Source: Candidatus Hodarchaeota archaeon (lineage in GTDB: Archaea; Asgardarchaeota; Heimdallarchaeia; Hodarchaeales; Hodarchaeaceae). Taken from it: a stretch of DNA of 12,825 nucleotides. Shown here piece by piece: positions 2,211 through 7,928 of this stretch. Under the pieces are notes generated by a model. That model did no database searches, had not been told where the DNA came from, and worked only from the letters and a program-made list of their open reading frames with translations. The stretch's first letter is position 1; every line of letters starts with the position of its first letter. The translations under genes and the position numbers were made by a program. The DNA lies in the NCBI GenBank assembly GCA_016839785.1, contig JAEOTQ010000015.1, forward strand, positions 1 through 12,825. The letters are read 5' to 3'.

Positions 2211-3053
2211 CTAGTGGAATCGTGCAACGATATCATTCCGAAATTTCATGACGTTATTGAGCAAGAGCTCTGTGCTATGGGTAGTAATTATCATCTTAAA
2301 CTGCATACGATAATCAAGTGAATAAAGGAAAAACTCAGGTTTATAACCAAATACTCCAGTGTAGATATCGCATACCTCCTGAATTTTCTCTTTTGTCGAT
2401 TTTAGGTCTCCTAATGGCGCTCCCCAAATGAATGTATATCGTACCACTTCTTCTTCTATCAATTGGAGTGCAAATGTTCTGATACTTCGTATTCTGGACT
2501 TCTTGGCATGTAAAGCTTGAGCTTCTGTGTCTCCAATTCGTCGTTTAATTCTCCGTTTGTAAATTGTAATATTTGAGGTCATGAAATTCTTATTTGGAAT
2601 GTAGTGAAAAATATCATTGATTGTTCTAATTCTGGTATAGTTTAAAGAAATTTCCACAACTTGACCACGAACCTCATTACCTATGGCGATAAAGTCATCA
2701 ACACGAAATGGCCTTGTGAATACTATATAAATACCTGCAAACAGATTACTAAGCATTTGAGTCGATCCAAATGACACGATTGCTCCTAAAAATGCTGAAA
2801 CACCAATGATTCCCTCTACTGATAGTCCATAAAGAATCATTATAGAGTAAAGGATTAATAAAGCTGTGATGAGTTTACAACCGACTTTAAATAAATTAAT
2901 TATGTCCAGTGGTATTCTACGAATTCGGAAAATCTGAGAAGAGAGGATGAATTGGATAATCCAATTTGCAATTAGTAGAACCAGAATAATAATGATGAGA
3001 AAAACGAATTTTAGTTCTGGTGACAGAGCATCAATAAATGTTTGGGAAATCAT
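2211..3053 (-). CDS. MscS-family mechanosensitive channel protein (paralog 2)
   Basis: Three hydrophobic N-terminal segments, then SNLFAGIYIVFTRPFRVDDFIAIG..GQVVEISLNYTRIRT..YIPN, the MscS TM3/beta-domain signature. Confidence 0.85.
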   Translation of the reverse strand: MISQTFIDALSPELKFVFLIIIILVLLIANWIIQFILSSQIFRIRRIPLDIINLFKVGCKLITALLILYSIMILYGLSVEGIIGVSAFLGAIVSFGSTQMLSNLFAGIYIVFTRPFRVDDFIAIGNEVRGQVVEISLNYTRIRTINDIFHYIPNKNFMTSNITIYKRRIKRRIGDTEAQALHAKKSRIRSIRTFALQLIEEEVVRYTFIWGAPLGDLKSTKEKIQEVCDIYTGVFGYKPEFFLYSLDYRMQFKMIITTHSTELLLNNVMKFRNDIVARFH

Positions 3054-3055
3054 CT

Positions 3056-3916
3056 TTATGACCCCTCCTGGAGTTCAGCGAATATTGTCTCCATTATCGA
3101 CTCCATCAAGTATGGCCAAGTATTGAAAATCGTATACGCGTCAGGTGCGGTAATTAAAAGATAGGTATTTTGACGGTAATCACTTTTTCCAAAATAATAT
3201 GTTAGTTCTTGCCCAAAGATTGGAGCAAATTTTTCACACACCTTTTTTAATCGCTTATTAACCTCAGTAATAGAGATTGGGGGTATAACTGCATTTAATT
3301 GTAGCTGAATCAATCTTCTTAATTTTATATTACGAGAATCAGAATATAACTCAGTTGAAATTACCTTGATAGTGTCTAGAGCGTTTAATCCTTCTTTCTG
3401 TTTTTTTTGATCAGATGGTGATCGTGTGTTGTAATTTAACAACGAAACGTTCAATAAATTACTGTTGGGAATTAGTACAATTGTTTTATCCAATTGGACG
3501 ATCCGTGTGAAAGTTAAACCGATTTCTTCAACAATTCCAATTGCTTCTTGAGCCTGAATCAAATCTCCGACACGAAATGGTCTTGTGATTATTAAATAAA
3601 GTCCTCCATATAAGTTCGTTGCGATTGAGGTTGAAGCAAATCCGATTACTGTAGCTAAAATTGCTGAAAAACCCAAGATAAGTTCTTGACTAGCCCCTAG
3701 TAAGGTGAACGCTACAAATCCAAAAAAGAGAATTTGCGTGATACTAATCCCGAGATTAAGTGCATTTTTTCCCTCAGGGGGAATTTTTGGTAGTCGACGA
3801 ACCATTGACTTAAGGAAAACTCCACCAAACCAGATTAAAATTAGTAAACATACTATAATTAGTACAGGTGCAATTGAATCGACCACATTTTGGAGTAAGT
3901 CTATTAAATCCTCCAA
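3056..3916 (-). CDS. MscS-family mechanosensitive channel protein (paralog 1)
   Basis: TTG start with GGTGA RBS at 3923-3927. Hydrophobic N-terminal helices, then TNLYGGLYLIITRPFRVGDLI..GIVEEIGLTFTRI..VLIPNSNL. Only 2 bp separate it from paralog 2, consistent with an operon. Confidence 0.87.
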   Translation of the reverse strand: MEDLIDLLQNVVDSIAPVLIIVCLLILIWFGGVFLKSMVRRLPKIPPEGKNALNLGISITQILFFGFVAFTLLGASQELILGFSAILATVIGFASTSIATNLYGGLYLIITRPFRVGDLIQAQEAIGIVEEIGLTFTRIVQLDKTIVLIPNSNLLNVSLLNYNTRSPSDQKKQKEGLNALDTIKVISTELYSDSRNIKLRRLIQLQLNAVIPPISITEVNKRLKKVCEKFAPIFGQELTYYFGKSDYRQNTYLLITAPDAYTIFNTWPYLMESIMETIFAELQEGS

Positions 3917-4119: not shown

Positions 4120-4542
4120 CTAAGCTGCGGTCAAAGTCGTAATATCGACCTTGCTTACACCCTTGATTTCCTTTAATTCGTCCTGGAGTTGGTCTCGTGA
4201 GATAGTCAAGTCGCTAGAATCGAGGTAACCCTCGTAAGTACACGAGTCTTGTGTGAAACACAGACCTGTACTATATAACGTCTTGATTTTACTACGCATG
4301 AACACAACGCCCAGTTCCTGCAAAAAGTCAGGTGAGAGTTCACCGATTTCAATGGCTACTTTTACCACTTCGGGACTTTTCGTTGGGATTATCCGGATAA
4401 TCTTTGTTGAAGGGGCGAGGATCATTACTGCTGAGCTTTCCTCCACATCTTTCGGTCGCAATGTTTCCAGGAAATCTGCGGGTAGAGATATGGGTTTTGA
4501 TTCTTGTAGTTGGATCATTTTTGCTATTGTGACTGCAGACAT
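4120..4542 (-). CDS. Small protein, probable AbrB-like N-terminus plus ACT-like C-terminal domain (putative regulator)
   Basis: N-terminal LQESKPISLPADFLETL..VMILAPSTKIIRIIP resembles the AbrB swapped-hairpin pattern. C-terminal VVKVAIEIGELSPDFLQELGVVF..LQDELKEIKGVSKVDI fits ACT beta-alpha-beta topology. GGAGG at 4555-4559. Confidence 0.6.
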   Translation of the reverse strand: MSAVTIAKMIQLQESKPISLPADFLETLRPKDVEESSAVMILAPSTKIIRIIPTKSPEVVKVAIEIGELSPDFLQELGVVFMRSKIKTLYSTGLCFTQDSCTYEGYLDSSDLTISRDQLQDELKEIKGVSKVDITTLTAA

Positions 4543-4657
4543 TCTAATTTTATGCCTCCACGTATATTATATTTATTAGGGAGTATTCCGATGTTTGAAA
4601 GTGTTTTTGGCATGATATGTGCCTAACGTTTCTTACGAAGAGATTGGCTAGCTTCAT

Positions 4658-4673
4658 GTTTAAAAGGCTTTTT
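4658..4673 (-). promoter_or_regulatory. Candidate archaeal BRE-TATA promoter for the 140-aa gene
   Basis: Minus strand AAAAAGCC-TTTTAAAC: purine-rich BRE followed by a TATA box. Would imply a ~90-nt 5' UTR containing the GGAGG RBS. Confidence 0.4.
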
Positions 4674-5219
4674 ATTTTTGTCTTGTTTTCGCCTGATTCC
4701 ATGATTGTGCCCTTACCTCACATTATCGAAATTCGTCCACAAATCCACTATTTGTACTCGTTTATGGCGAAGATAGGGGTAAGTTCCCTTAACTCGAATA
4801 TTTGCTTAAAACTTTCTCTTCGTAGGTATTTTGACTCATTCGCCTTTTTCATAAATTTTTCTGGAATAATTTTCAAAAAATCTGCTTGATTTTAATAGTA
4901 ATGTCATTTTTTCGATTGATAAGCGTTATTGTACCTTGGTCTTCGTTTTTGTTTTTAACTTCCCTGAATTATAAGTCCATTGTTACTTAAGAATAATATC
5001 TCTTGAATATCCCAGATTTTAAATCATTAAAGCCTTCTTTTTATGTTTTCAAGTAGGTGATATTTTTCACTTTGAATAAGTTTAGTTTATCTCTACCTGT
5101 ATCTCTCCTCTCATGAAAATGTGATTAGTAATTCCAAAGCAAGCTAGAATATTCATGTCGCTGGAAAAATCTTTATTTTTGTTAGATATATTCACTGTCT
5201 CAAGATCTGTATTTATTCC

Positions 5220-5315: not shown

Positions 5316-5942
5316 ATGGTATTAGATAGAGACATTAGATTGACTATTTTAGGGCACACTGGTGTTGGGAAGACCAGTCTCATAAAAAGGTTAAAGGGGG
5401 AAGATCCCGCAGACACAGAAAAGACGATGGATATAATTATCGAGAGAAAAAAAATGATTCTCTTGTCTGCAGCCAAACAATCAAAATTATCATTAGAACG
5501 CTACCGTAAATACAATATTATAGCCGTTGATAATCCTGGTGACTTCAAGTTACGACGAAAATGGCGTGAAGCCATGCGTAAGTATAAAACTGATGGGATT
5601 CTCTTTATGCTTGATCCTTCGCAACCTGTAGAAACTCAACGGGTTGCGATGGAAGATTCATTTAATTACTTTCTTGACAGTCTAAGTTTGGATCCTGAAA
5701 AGGCAGATAAGAAAGCAAGAAAGAAGAAAACATTGTTTGTGTTCGTAGTCAATAAGATGGATACGATAAATCATGATGAAAAACAAGCTAGTGAATTTTT
5801 AGACAATTTTGAACCCGTAGTCAAAGACTTCAAGATGACATTCCCTTTTGCTGTGTTTGAACGTGTATTTATTAGTGTTCAGGACTCACCTTACGAAAAG
5901 ATTGATGAAATCTTTGAGAAGTGTAAACAAGCTTTGTATTGA
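5316..5942 (+). CDS. Ras-superfamily small GTPase, Arf/Sar1/SR-beta-like
   Basis: G1 GHTGVGKT, G2 Thr in TEKTM, G3 DNPG followed by Arf-like switch II FKLRRKWR, GILFMLD strand, G4 NKMD, G5 ISVQ. RBS GGGTGA at 5304-5309. Confidence 0.9.
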   Translation: MVLDRDIRLTILGHTGVGKTSLIKRLKGEDPADTEKTMDIIIERKKMILLSAAKQSKLSLERYRKYNIIAVDNPGDFKLRRKWREAMRKYKTDGILFMLDPSQPVETQRVAMEDSFNYFLDSLSLDPEKADKKARKKKTLFVFVVNKMDTINHDEKQASEFLDNFEPVVKDFKMTFPFAVFERVFISVQDSPYEKIDEIFEKCKQALY

Positions 5943-5968: not shown

Positions 5969-6964
5969 ATGACTGATATTCACCAGGTAATTGTGAAGAA
6001 TGTTCCCCCAAAGGGATTGGATGTCGTAGCTGCGACGATTACAAAAAGTCAGATCCAGGATTTATCGCAATATATCCCTAAAAAACGCCCCAAGGAATTC
6101 AATGGAGTATATTTGACAAAATTTCTACATAACTCAGGAAAAATTGGATTGAGATTTACCTTTGACGATGGCACCGACCAATTTGGTAGAAAAGCAATAA
6201 AAACACATACACTTATTATTGATAATTCTTTCTATAATGCAAATACAGCCTTGTACTTTATTTCCCCACTTTTAAATAAGAGTTTAACGGTAGAGGGAAG
6301 TTCTCTTCTTCGATTTGAGGATTTTGAGAGTATTGAACCTCATCCAATCTCATCGAAACTAGTAGAAATGCTATTATGTAAAAAACATGTGAGTCTTGAG
6401 AGTCAATCTGAACAATCTTCTTATTCGTTGATCCACATTTTTAGCACTTTAGACAGAATAATACCACCCCTACTTACATCTCGATTTTCATTTCAGACTT
6501 TTATTGATCAATCACAAATTTCTGACGCAAAAAAGATAAGTCTTGTATATTCAAATTCTGATATTGCAAATTCTATTGCTCTAGATCAAATCAAGGATCA
6601 AGTCTCAGAATATCCAACTGTCCGAGCCCTCACTGACTCATTACATGATTTACCAACCTTACGTGGATTACAGAAGCAAATTTTCCTAGGAATACCTGAA
6701 AAACGTTTGAATTTCCGTATTCATTTGCGATTCGGAATAAAAACATTTGCACATATTAAAAAAACCCTTGAAATGGGTTTACATGTTAATGATCTGATAA
6801 AAATCGTTGATGGGCCCTATAGAGGGAAAAAGGCCCATATTGAAGACATAGATTCTGATAATGACCAGTTATCAATCATACTGATCGGAAAAGGAGCAAA
6901 AAGACCCATTACTATTCCTGTGAGTTCAGTATATTTAATGGAACCTTTAAACAGTAAGGAATGA
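5969..6964 (+). CDS. Putative GTPase-associated protein: GAP1-N2/GAP1-M-like region plus C-terminal Spt5/NusG-type KOW domain
   Basis: 26 bp downstream of the GTPase on the same strand. Motifs KGLDVVAAT, GTDQFGRKAIKTHTLII and LDRIIPPLLTSRFSFQTF. C-terminal GLHVNDLIKIVDGPYRGKKAHIEDIDSDNDQLSIILIG..PITIPVSSVYLM is a clear KOW motif. The CDS and KOW are solid; the GAP1 call is by motif memory. Confidence 0.6.
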   Translation: MTDIHQVIVKNVPPKGLDVVAATITKSQIQDLSQYIPKKRPKEFNGVYLTKFLHNSGKIGLRFTFDDGTDQFGRKAIKTHTLIIDNSFYNANTALYFISPLLNKSLTVEGSSLLRFEDFESIEPHPISSKLVEMLLCKKHVSLESQSEQSSYSLIHIFSTLDRIIPPLLTSRFSFQTFIDQSQISDAKKISLVYSNSDIANSIALDQIKDQVSEYPTVRALTDSLHDLPTLRGLQKQIFLGIPEKRLNFRIHLRFGIKTFAHIKKTLEMGLHVNDLIKIVDGPYRGKKAHIEDIDSDNDQLSIILIGKGAKRPITIPVSSVYLMEPLNSKE

Positions 6965-6996: not shown

Positions 6997-7230
6997 TTAG
7001 TCCGAAATATCTATTACTTCAAATAATCGAGCAACACAAACGGCTACCTCTGGATCGTCGTCTTTCAAAGCTTCTTCTAATATTGATTTACTTTCTAAAA
7101 AATTATATTTAAATAAATACCGAGCTACAGACATCCTTTCAAACTTGTCTGGATCATTTAACAATTTCTGAATCATTTCGTCACGCATACACGGTTTATT
7201 CGTTGTCAAGTTGATCTTTGACCCCTCCAA
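6997..7230 (-). CDS. Small HEAT-repeat (PBS-lyase type) protein
   Basis: Two repeats: IQKLLNDPDKFERMSVARYL and LEEALKDDDPEVAVCVARLF. TTG start; an internal ATG is also possible. Confidence 0.7.
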   Translation of the reverse strand: MEGSKINLTTNKPCMRDEMIQKLLNDPDKFERMSVARYLFKYNFLESKSILEEALKDDDPEVAVCVARLFEVIDISD

Positions 7231-7322: not shown

Positions 7323-7928
7323 ATGAAATTCTTCTTCAATAATACTGAAACTGTAGAGCTAAAAGAGAGAAAAAGGATGCGAATTAAACAAATTTACAAT
7401 AGAGACCATCAGAAAAATAAGAAGATGGTTTCAGAATATACATCTAAATATTATTATACAGTAGAATCTAAAAAAAAGCCAAATAATGAAGGATGGATAT
7501 TTGAATGGAAAAAAACTCCTTTCAAAGAAATTTTCAGGAAGAAATGGGAGGGAAATTTATTCGAGCTGTTCAAAGGAGAGGCTGAATATTATATAATGGA
7601 AAATACAGAGAATGAGGAAATTGGACTGGTTGTATTTGAACACCTAAGCCATTCAAATCGTACACGTATTTGGGATATTATGATTCAATCAGAATACCAA
7701 AGAAATGGATACGGAACACTTTTACTTAATTATGTGCAAACTAAAGCTGAAAATCTTAAATCCAGAGCATTAGTTTTGGAATGTCAAAATACTAATTATA
7801 AAGCAATTAATTTTTATATAAAAAATGGATTTAATCTCATAGGGTTTGATCTAGAAGCCTATATACAAGAACAAGGAGGGGGAATCGAAGTTAGGTTTGA
7901 AATGGGTAAGAATTTAAGAACTATTTAG
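7323..7928 (+). CDS. GNAT-family N-acetyltransferase (streptothricin acetyltransferase-like)
   Basis: Acetyl-CoA motif A IWDIMIQSEYQRNGYGTLLL and motif B LVLECQNTNYKAINFYIKNGFNLIGFD. The true start may be the later Met at 7377 (MRIKQIY). Confidence 0.88.
   Translation: MKFFFNNTETVELKERKRMRIKQIYNRDHQKNKKMVSEYTSKYYYTVESKKKPNNEGWIFEWKKTPFKEIFRKKWEGNLFELFKGEAEYYIMENTENEEIGLVVFEHLSHSNRTRIWDIMIQSEYQRNGYGTLLLNYVQTKAENLKSRALVLECQNTNYKAINFYIKNGFNLIGFDLEAYIQEQGGGIEVRFEMGKNLRTI

Follow-up and report, generated by a model that had tools for sequence, protein, structure and literature searches.

The stretch of DNA analysed here (the window: 12,825 nucleotides, positions 1 to 12,825 of contig JAEOTQ010000015.1 from Candidatus Hodarchaeota archaeon, assembly GCA_016839785.1) raises the question of why a protein encoded directly behind a small GTPase gene ends in a KOW domain of the kind found in Spt5 and NusG. 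The gene in question, which we call DENN-KOW, starts 26 nucleotides after the end of the GTPase gene; the assembly comprises 4.04 Mb and is 84.5% complete. An earlier note, made from the sequence, had read the last 63 amino acids, counted from an in-frame ATG at position 6773, as an Spt5/NusG-type KOW domain that lacks an NGN domain and is fused to a partner of the GTPase. Our analysis leads us to see the whole protein as a DENN-type GTPase-activating protein (GAP) that carries a lineage-specific targeting domain derived from Spt5, a reading to which we give somewhat better than an even chance.

We found that the C-terminus is a true KOW domain of the Spt5/NusG type. The Pfam hidden Markov model PF00467 matched amino acids 273-301 with 24.2 bits (cut-off 22.3, E-value 2.8e-5) and the last 63 amino acids alone with 27.6 bits (E-value 2.4e-6); the same model matched 10/10 long family members in our alignment A2. 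Among NCBIfam models the best was that of archaeal Spt5, TIGR00405 (E-value 3.8e-5 on the 63 amino acids), followed by NusG models, and the bacterial uL24 model (rplX) reached only E 0.11. On the 63 amino acids TIGR00405 covered profile positions 90-140 of 145, which is the KOW part, and the whole-protein alignment spanned positions 47-140. Its score of 24.1 bits lies far below the whole-Spt5 cut-off of 69.95, which places the protein outside the Spt5 equivalog; since only the KOW part is matched, the protein has no NGN domain, and amino acids 1-270 are predicted to fold as a longin and a DENN domain. A six-frame scan of the assembly with PF00467 found two places only, the genuine Spt5 gene on contig C148 and the DENN-KOW open reading frame (ORF). 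In the AlphaFold2 model, amino acids 276-323 form a five-stranded barrel that superposes on Thermotoga maritima NusG (2xhc_A; Z 9.7, root-mean-square deviation (rmsd) 1.4 Å, 56 residues aligned), on Methanocaldococcus jannaschii Spt5 (4zn3_A; Z 9.5) and on Pyrococcus furiosus Spt5 (3p8b_B; 33% identity over 58 columns, rmsd 1.8 Å). Public records label some members of the family 'KOW motif-containing protein' or 'NusG'. Taken together, the above-threshold profile match and the barrel bear out what the earlier note had said of the last 63 amino acids and of the absent NGN domain.

The fusion is real, conserved and under purifying selection. An in-frame ATG (Met269) sits exactly at the domain border, about two residues before the boundary, and might point to a mis-assembly or to two genes, with a separate KOW protein made from position 6773. 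At the corresponding position the remaining long forms carry I, L, V or W, and the ATG is therefore incidental. The junction near 6770, which the earlier note had marked for scrutiny, is bridged by a contig spanning 6393-7300 with 0 differences (X2, record 13) and by one from another study spanning 6584-6832 with 1 difference (X3, record 16); these are assembled contigs from two runs of two studies, one of which may be the source sample. The reading frame is continuous, with no stop between the domains, in 26/26 KOW-bearing proteins drawn from NCBI, JGI, ENA and Logan, and the short-form loci of the genus have no separate KOW ORF downstream, their stop abutting the next, convergent gene. Among genomes G000, G002, G005, G006 and G007, which represent five species, the ratio of nonsynonymous to synonymous rates (dN/dS, Nei-Gojobori) was 0.10-0.32 for the KOW and 0.07-0.18 for the N-terminal part in the same pairs, rough values given that dS is near saturation for most pairs; the N-terminal ratio was 0.34 in the near-identical pair L003/L005 (dS 0.05), and the closest pair showed no nonsynonymous change in the KOW. 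In view of this in-frame selection, the bridging contigs and the unbroken frames, the chance that the fusion is an artefact is practically nil.

We next consider where the KOW came from and how widely it occurs. Neither uL24 (TIGR01080) nor eL14 (PF01929) was found in the 84.5%-complete assembly, and the comparison used the Spt5, uL24 and eS4 KOW domains of four relatives, as pairwise identities because 55 amino acids carry little signal. Identity of the fused KOWs was 28-41% with the Spt5 KOWs of the genus, against 16-26% with uL24 and 7-23% with eS4. The kinship comparison proposed in the earlier note was thus realised in part, by pairwise identity: Spt5 is nearest, with uL24 and eS4 taken from relatives. 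The alignment of fused KOW and Spt5 is gap-free from the 'GL..D' start to the last strand, and in several lineages an acidic tail resembling the Spt5 C-terminus follows the fused KOW. This highest identity, the gap-free alignment and the Spt5-like tails make the 3' end of the spt5 gene of the same lineage the most likely source of the fused KOW. Identity among the four lineages with the KOW is only 22-33%, and they stand closer to Spt5 than to each other; this fits either one old capture with fast divergence or repeated capture. The glycine motif GP-x-x-G is kept in 3/4 of these lineages, and in the fourth the proline is replaced by S or Q (P0030, P0060).

Within the genus, 18 genomes hold a full-length homologue, of which 6 (G000, G001, G002, G005, G006 and G007) carry the KOW and 12 do not; the fusion thus extends beyond one genome. 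Family homologues made up 56 database clusters, all from records labelled Asgard or Heimdall: 23 long (329-355 amino acids), 32 short (259-274 amino acids) and 1 truncated fragment. In a tree built on the N-terminal 268 columns with 66 rows, the KOW was present in 26/66 proteins and fell in four places, namely a main clade of 22 (together with the fragment P0016), P0025 with P0059, P0030, and P0060. The best tree requires 4 gains or losses of the KOW without the fragment P0016 and 5 with it, and a tree uniting all 26 KOW forms was not rejected (approximately unbiased test, P-value 0.0635). One origin followed by losses, one late origin, and repeated capture from Spt5 are all possible histories. 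A database search with the 63-amino-acid KOW for longer proteins returned 4, all of this family, and no other KOW fusion, which counts as weak evidence. A further KOW-bearing ORF besides Spt5 was seen in another genome of the set (L037, G002:C71, 488-580, + strand); it encodes 188 amino acids, with a NusG-like KOW at its extreme C-terminus.

The remainder of the protein, amino acids 1-270, had no match in Pfam or NCBIfam; searched as a profile against PDB sequences it hit a single entry, a periplasmic binding protein (E-value 0.024), which is spurious, and the ESM Atlas gave no usable match for amino acids 1-268. A family profile without the KOW retrieved 31 representatives among 1.84 billion proteins, and the distant members are 250-350 amino acids long, with no extra domains in the 19 that were scanned. 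The AlphaFold2 model of the full-length protein, made with family alignments, had a predicted local distance difference test (pLDDT) score of 91.1 and a predicted template modelling (pTM) score of 0.80; the model of amino acids 1-270 had a pLDDT of 91.7 and a pTM of 0.90. It shows a predicted longin with strands at 4-12, 16-22, 47-53, 59-69 and 75-84 followed by helices at 86-102, and then, over amino acids 122-270, alternating helices and strands (strands 141-144, 175-179 and 192-195) that end in helices at 216-269.

Foldseek searches with the 1-270 model placed DENN or longin-DENN proteins at all of ranks 1-9 (E-values 2.3e-6 to 3.9e-3), with probabilities below 0.1 after rank 9. The top matches were DENND1B and DENND1A (E-values 2.3e-6 to 2.8e-5), and the nine also held DENND10 (8p0v_M), 6nzd_H from an FLCN-FNIP2-Rag-Ragulator entry, 6ulg_N from an FLCN-FNIP2 entry, 8dhb_J from an entry of the active FLCN GAP, and 7mge_C from a C9orf72-SMCR8-WDR41-ARF1 entry. 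VIA-align, which is independent of Foldseek, matched the whole module to DENND10 (8p0v_M; Z 9.5, 232 aligned) and to DENND1A (6ekk_A; Z 9.4, 246 aligned over 1-270). It matched amino acids 1-120 to a Lokiarchaeota longin (8yqg_B; Z 9.0, 115 aligned) and to the longins of Lst4 (Z 7.9) and FNIP2 (Z 7.6), and amino acids 122-262 to the C-terminal DENN of folliculin (6nzd_H, Z 5.9, and 3v42_B, Z 5.8; about 130 aligned). As judged from its predicted structure, the N-terminal part is a compact DENN module that consists of a longin, a DENN core and a helical d-DENN part.

Two sets of related proteins were noticed in the course of these searches. A separate 441-amino-acid ORF of the source genome (G000:C230:1432-1617, + strand) passes the Pfam Folliculin cut-off with 29.1 bits; it is distinct from the DENN-KOW family and is one of the Asgard FLCN-like proteins, a class already published. 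In two other Asgard genomes (G024 and G143), proteins of 1013 amino acids (L103:273-3311, + strand) and 1060 amino acids (L104:1021-4200, - strand) share in their N-termini the strand 3-5 region of the family with its 'DxxGR...H.L' motif (E-values 6.6e-7 and 1.5e-6). Long helical regions follow the N-terminus in both, no Pfam match was found for either, and the two could be very large relatives of the longin part.

The upstream GTPase matched the Pfam families Arf (24.8 bits, cut-off 22.3), SRPRB (27.0 bits, cut-off 25) and MMR_HSR1 (32.3 bits). Its motifs are GHTGVGKT (G1), DNPGD (switch II) and NKMD (G4), and switch II reads D-(N/C)-P-G-D with the Arf-like spacing G-x4-R-x2-W. In an alignment of 27 GTPase orthologues and paralogues (A3), D72, P74, G75 and W83 do not vary and D76 hardly does, and the switch II glycine is followed by Asp or Glu, not by a catalytic Gln, in 27/27 sequences. 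In the published HodArfR1 the catalytic Gln is Q72, and Arf and Ras likewise have Gln at that position.

We pair the DENN protein with this GTPase on three grounds: the genes are adjacent, their phyletic patterns match, and a complex of the two proteins is predicted. In 18/18 loci of the genus the DENN gene directly follows the GTPase gene. Counted by genome, the DENN family occurs in 17/21 of family f1, 1/2 of f2, 1/1 of f3, 28/31 of f4 and 0/27 of f5-f7, and the GTPase in 20/21, 1/2, 1/1, 27/31 and 0/27, respectively, so that the DENN family is limited to four families, all in a single class; in f3 the two genes lie about 1 kb apart. The predicted complex, modelled with GTP and Mg, had an interaction prediction score from aligned errors (ipSAE) of 0.74, with the best of three controls at 0.02; in calibration this mark was reached by 58/80 solved complexes and by 2/110 mismatched pairs, and our custom alignments and ligands depart from that calibration. 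Three runs agreed in at least 98% of contacts, with a partner pLDDT of 90 in each. Binding and interface are thus predicted from the model, and the two genes seem fairly likely to form a two-gene switch module specific to part of Heimdallarchaeia. The fusion to a GTPase partner claimed by the earlier note stands as to the partnership; what the note had missed is that the partner is a DENN module.

A paralogous GTPase is encoded elsewhere in the source genome (L088, G000:C198, 3768-4439, - strand). It is 52% identical, has the same DNPGE/D switch II, and occurs once each in 20/21 other genus genomes as well as in G000. It lies tail-to-tail with a 279-amino-acid ORF of no known family (2914-3750, + strand). 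A relationship of this ORF to the DENN family was ruled out (hhalign probability 1%), and it may be a second, different GTPase partner.

The residues conserved in the DENN module point to a possible mechanism. R74, P100 and P166 are invariant across the family, and Q6, G16, K51, D70, F119 and a few others are nearly so; R74 is found in 40/40 sequences of alignment A2 and 35/35 of alignment A4, and G16 is conserved in 90% or more of 40 sequences. R74, the last residue of the motif DDGxDxFGR, lies in the loop between the predicted longin strands 59-69 and 75-84 (strands 4-5). The predicted interface involves only longin residues 11-77, and no DENN core; on the GTPase side it comprises the P-loop (15-16), switch I (34-39) and switch II (75-82). 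In the model the loop that holds G16 (DENN residues 16-18) reaches GTPase residue 15 of the P-loop and residues 75-76 and 78-79 of switch II; R74 touches switch I at residues 34-36, and F72 the P-loop glycine G16. It has been reported that the 'DENN GAPs' Avl9 and DENND6A are defined by a conserved Arg between longin strands 4-5 (bioRxiv 10.64898/2026.01.05.697756), and that FLCN, SMCR8, NPRL2 and Asgard FLCN/SMCR8-type longins combine an arginine finger with a strand 1-2 loop motif (PMC12290439).

We therefore propose, by likeness to these longin GAPs, that the DENN module would bind the GTPase through its longin subdomain, that the invariant Arg74 would be inserted at the nucleotide pocket and stimulate hydrolysis, and that the Spt5-derived KOW, on a short flexible linker, would add a targeting or adaptor function. 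Because Arg74 is predicted to be placed as in DENN and longin GAPs and the GTPase lacks a catalytic Gln, a GAP role is the most likely one for the protein, and we put the prospect that it acts as a GAP for the upstream GTPase at about even. The KOW is probably a flexibly tethered module, since model confidence is low in the linker (amino acids 261-270, mean pLDDT 57) and the pTM rises from 0.80 to 0.90 without the KOW.

Other explanations of the DENN module have to be weighed, and several points count against the GAP reading and the targeting role together. The best whole-module matches, DENND1B and DENND1A, are Rab35 guanine nucleotide exchange factors (GEFs), and Liu et al. read an Asgard operon of Roadblock, GTPase and DENN genes as a candidate GEF system and proposed GEF function for Asgard DENN modules (bioRxiv 10.1101/2020.10.19.343400). 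GTP was added to the complex by the modeller, so that the model cannot tell a GAP from a GEF or an effector, and its favourable score may stem from the network having learned solved complexes of GTPases with longin or DENN proteins. The DENN, folliculin and longin models of Pfam match none of 40 family members at E-values up to 5; a genome scan with PF02141 was silent, as were its controls. The DENN assignment is drawn solely from predicted structure and is that of a fold, not of a named sequence family, and the template modelling scores (TM-scores) of the DENN matches are modest (0.40-0.47, with rmsd of about 5-6 Å over about 240 residues). In f4 the homologue and the GTPase gene are unlinked in 8/8 loci examined. 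As to the KOW, it is absent from 40/66 tree rows (one of them, P0016, a fragment cut before its position) and from every member outside family f1; because most family members do without it, it is dispensable for the core function of the family. It also evolves faster than the DENN part (nonsynonymous proportion, pN, 0.15-0.23 versus 0.12-0.14). What speaks against a GEF, effector or scaffold of the DENND1-Rab35 kind, in which the KOW would still be a targeting domain, is the predicted interface, which is confined to the longin and centred on the invariant Arg of the strand 4-5 loop, together with a GTPase that has no catalytic Gln of its own and calls for a residue in trans. We consider that alternative unlikely, and the DENN-type GAP remains our preferred reading.

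What the KOW does within this proposed GAP is a more uncertain matter. The KOW of NusG binds ribosomal protein S10. The archaeal Spt5 KOW binds both protomers of the termination nuclease FttA, and the NusG KOW binds Rho (PMC11616081). By analogy, the KOW might bring the GAP, or the complex of GTPase and GAP, to a ligand like those of Spt5 KOWs, for instance FttA/aCPSF1, the ribosome or RNA. That the ligand belongs to the transcription or translation machinery is a tentative suggestion that we hold to be rather improbable, and the narrower version, in which the KOW would dock the GTPase switch on surfaces used by Spt5 (the FttA/aCPSF1 nuclease or the lead ribosome), is improbable to a greater degree; if true, such docking would be a direct wire from eukaryote-like GTPase signalling to the core gene-expression machinery. 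Slightly better placed, and still doubtful, is the idea that the KOW acts within the module, as an autoregulatory lid on the DENN body or the GTPase, or that it binds an unrelated ligand. KOW- and Tudor-like barrels are generic binders, VIA-align lists many barrels other than NusG (Tudor, NdhS, PWWP) at Z 7-8, and both the many KOW-less members and the fast divergence between lineages would suit it. The loose linker and the gain in pTM on removal of the KOW, however, suggest no fixed docking, and the retained GP-x-x-G motif and the Spt5-like acidic tails of some lineages also argue against it. The earlier note had further considered a conflict (defence) system, with a GTPase-associated adaptor whose C-terminal bait or effector is swappable. 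This receives slight encouragement from a very weak Pfam GAP1-M match in 1/40 members (E-value 0.14), from a weak resemblance of the GTPase to LeoA in PADLOC (E-value 7.7e-5) that amounts to generic GTPase similarity, and from the DxxGR motif region shared with the 1013- and 1060-amino-acid Asgard proteins. The C-terminus, however, is two-state: across 66 proteins and the 31 representatives it is KOW or nothing, with no other domain in the 19 distant members or the 40 of alignment A2; orthologues vary only in having the KOW or lacking it. PADLOC matched neither the DENN-KOW protein nor the 3 neighbouring window proteins tested, selection is purifying rather than diversifying, and across the genus the locus occurs once, in conserved order amid housekeeping genes (endonuclease III, a SIS protein and Hel308), with one family copy found in a search of the source genome. 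We regard a conflict system as very improbable and drop the swappable bait.

Comparison with known systems places the protein between several groups. Like DENND1A/B, DENND10 and Avl9/DENND6A, it combines a longin, an alpha/beta DENN core and a helical d-DENN in one chain, and the Foldseek probability of its module to DENND1A and DENND10 is 1.00. The eukaryotic DENN modules are about 100 residues longer, and the protein differs from them in being archaeal, in bearing a KOW and in having no sequence-model match, its GAP activity being putative. With Avl9-type GAPs, as described in the preprint, it shares the conserved Arg between longin strands 4-5; the presumed client here is Arf-like, and the Avl9/DENND6A class acts on Arf-family GTPases. 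Avl9 is predicted there to use its cDENN part as well, whereas the DENN-KOW interface is predicted to be longin-only. FLCN-FNIP, C9orf72-SMCR8, GATOR1 (NPRL2-NPRL3) and the Asgard FLCN/SMCR8-type proteins likewise have a longin with a strand 1-2 loop. In these longin GAPs the arginine finger lies at an Arf/Rag-type nucleotide pocket (PMC12290439), and the model predicts a similar placement for Arg74. Longin-GAP entries that matched the module were 6nzd_H, 6ulg_N, 7mge_C, 7o2w_A and the Lst4 longin, and its C-terminal lobe resembles the folliculin DENN with the Z of 5.9 given above. The longin-GAP complexes are heterodimers of two longin-DENN subunits, and there is no second subunit gene beside the DENN-KOW gene; furthermore, their 'GP' motif is not literally present here, where the conserved G16 has no adjacent P.

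The operon of Liu et al. (2020/2021), which combines a LAMTOR1-like Roadblock protein, a Rab-like GTPase and a DENN protein, is alike in placing an Asgard DENN gene in a putative GTPase operon; that preprint also describes expanded DENN paralogue families in Heimdall lineages with non-eukaryotic architectures. Our locus differs in having two genes, no Roadblock/LC7 match among the 13 window proteins scanned with Pfam, and an Arf/SR-beta-like GTPase without the Gln. The C-terminal 55 amino acids are closest, in sequence and fold, to the KOW barrel of archaeal Spt5/NusG. Those proteins have an NGN domain, and without one no binding to the RNA polymerase clamp is expected of the DENN-KOW protein; the genuine Spt5 is encoded elsewhere, at G000:C148. 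DENN-GTPase modules and longin GAP-like proteins in Asgard archaea and Heimdallarchaeia are already published. The earlier note's view that the architecture is undescribed has held up so far as our search goes: the DENN-KOW fusion was not found in the literature searched, which gave incidental name matches only and did not cover figures or supplementary tables, and within the same limits neither the Pfam-invisible DENN family nor its pairing with a Gln-less Arf-like GTPase was found in print.

Table 1. Coordinates in the window of the two genes and of the parts of the DENN-KOW protein.
Feature	Position	Strand	Basis or remarks
Small GTPase gene, Arf/SR-beta-like	5316..5942	+	208 amino acids; Pfam matches, G1, switch II and G4 motifs
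DENN-KOW gene	5969..6964	+	ORF, 331 amino acids plus stop
Longin subdomain, amino acids 1-120	5969..6328	+	Predicted secondary structure, VIA-align matches
Strand 1-2 loop, amino acids 13-18 PPKGLD, near-invariant G16	6005..6022	+	Alignment; predicted GTPase contacts
Arg74 codon AGA, candidate arginine finger, motif DDGxDxFGR	6188..6190	+	Alignments, predicted structure
DENN core and helical d-DENN-like part, amino acids 122-270	6332..6778	+	Predicted-structure matches
In-frame ATG, Met269, codon 269	6773..6775	+	Not conserved, not a start
KOW domain, most likely Spt5-derived, amino acids 271-325	6779..6943	+	Hidden Markov model, fold, identity to Spt5
Pfam KOW match, amino acids 273-301	6785-6871	+	PF00467
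C-terminal tail, amino acids 326-331 (low confidence), and stop codon	6944..6964	+	pLDDT <50 for amino acids 328-331

The surroundings of the two genes hold several features of their own. Divergent from the GTPase gene lies the gene of a 140-amino-acid protein (4120-4542, - strand) whose first 68 residues are letter-identical in other species of the genus (L008, L012 and L016); in L019 the identity extends over 96 residues. The DENN proteins of species that share this identical N-terminus are only about 50% identical. The sole Pfam hint for the 140-amino-acid protein is a weak VNG_1110C-like match (E-value 0.061), and its conservation is extreme. Beside this gene, in the intergenic region at about 4543-4800, a non-coding block of about 250 nucleotides is conserved and shared across genus genomes (alignment A5). 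A 90-amino-acid ORF at 4617-4889 is spurious, being conserved only because the DNA is. The block has no Rfam or tRNA match, and it may be a leader, a promoter region or an undescribed RNA; in the window as a whole no Rfam families and no tRNA were found.

On the other side, a small HEAT-repeat gene (6997-7230, - strand; product of 71-84 amino acids) is convergent to the DENN gene in 16/18 genus loci. Of the two exceptions, L005 ends before that side, and for L007 no such gene is listed. The stop of the HEAT gene abuts that of the DENN gene in short-form loci. In f4, the other Heimdall family, the HEAT gene does not lie next to the homologue. Between it and endonuclease III lies a GNAT acetyltransferase gene (7323-7928, + strand), which is present only in loci of the main KOW clade (L001, L003, L004 and L006) and is absent in short-form loci and in G001. 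The window also holds tandem paralogues of MscS-type mechanosensitive channels (2211-3053 and 3056-3916, both - strand).

Among the hallmarks of eukaryotic membrane traffic and nutrient signalling are regulators of small GTPases of the DENN and longin kinds. What is known of their Asgard forerunners comes mainly from sequence and predicted structure, and rarely has a client GTPase been assigned to one of them. The locus described here offers a compact matched pair, a 208-amino-acid Gln-less GTPase and a 270-amino-acid DENN module with one invariant Arg in its strand 4-5 loop, and the question of GAP or GEF is therefore directly testable. The Spt5-type KOW is a hint that one lineage has connected the switch to some machine that binds KOW domains. 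Should this turn out to be FttA, RNA polymerase or the ribosome, GTPase signalling would be tied to transcription or translation in an unexpected way; should it be something else, the fusion would still be a clean natural experiment, in which sister species carry the same gene with and without the KOW.

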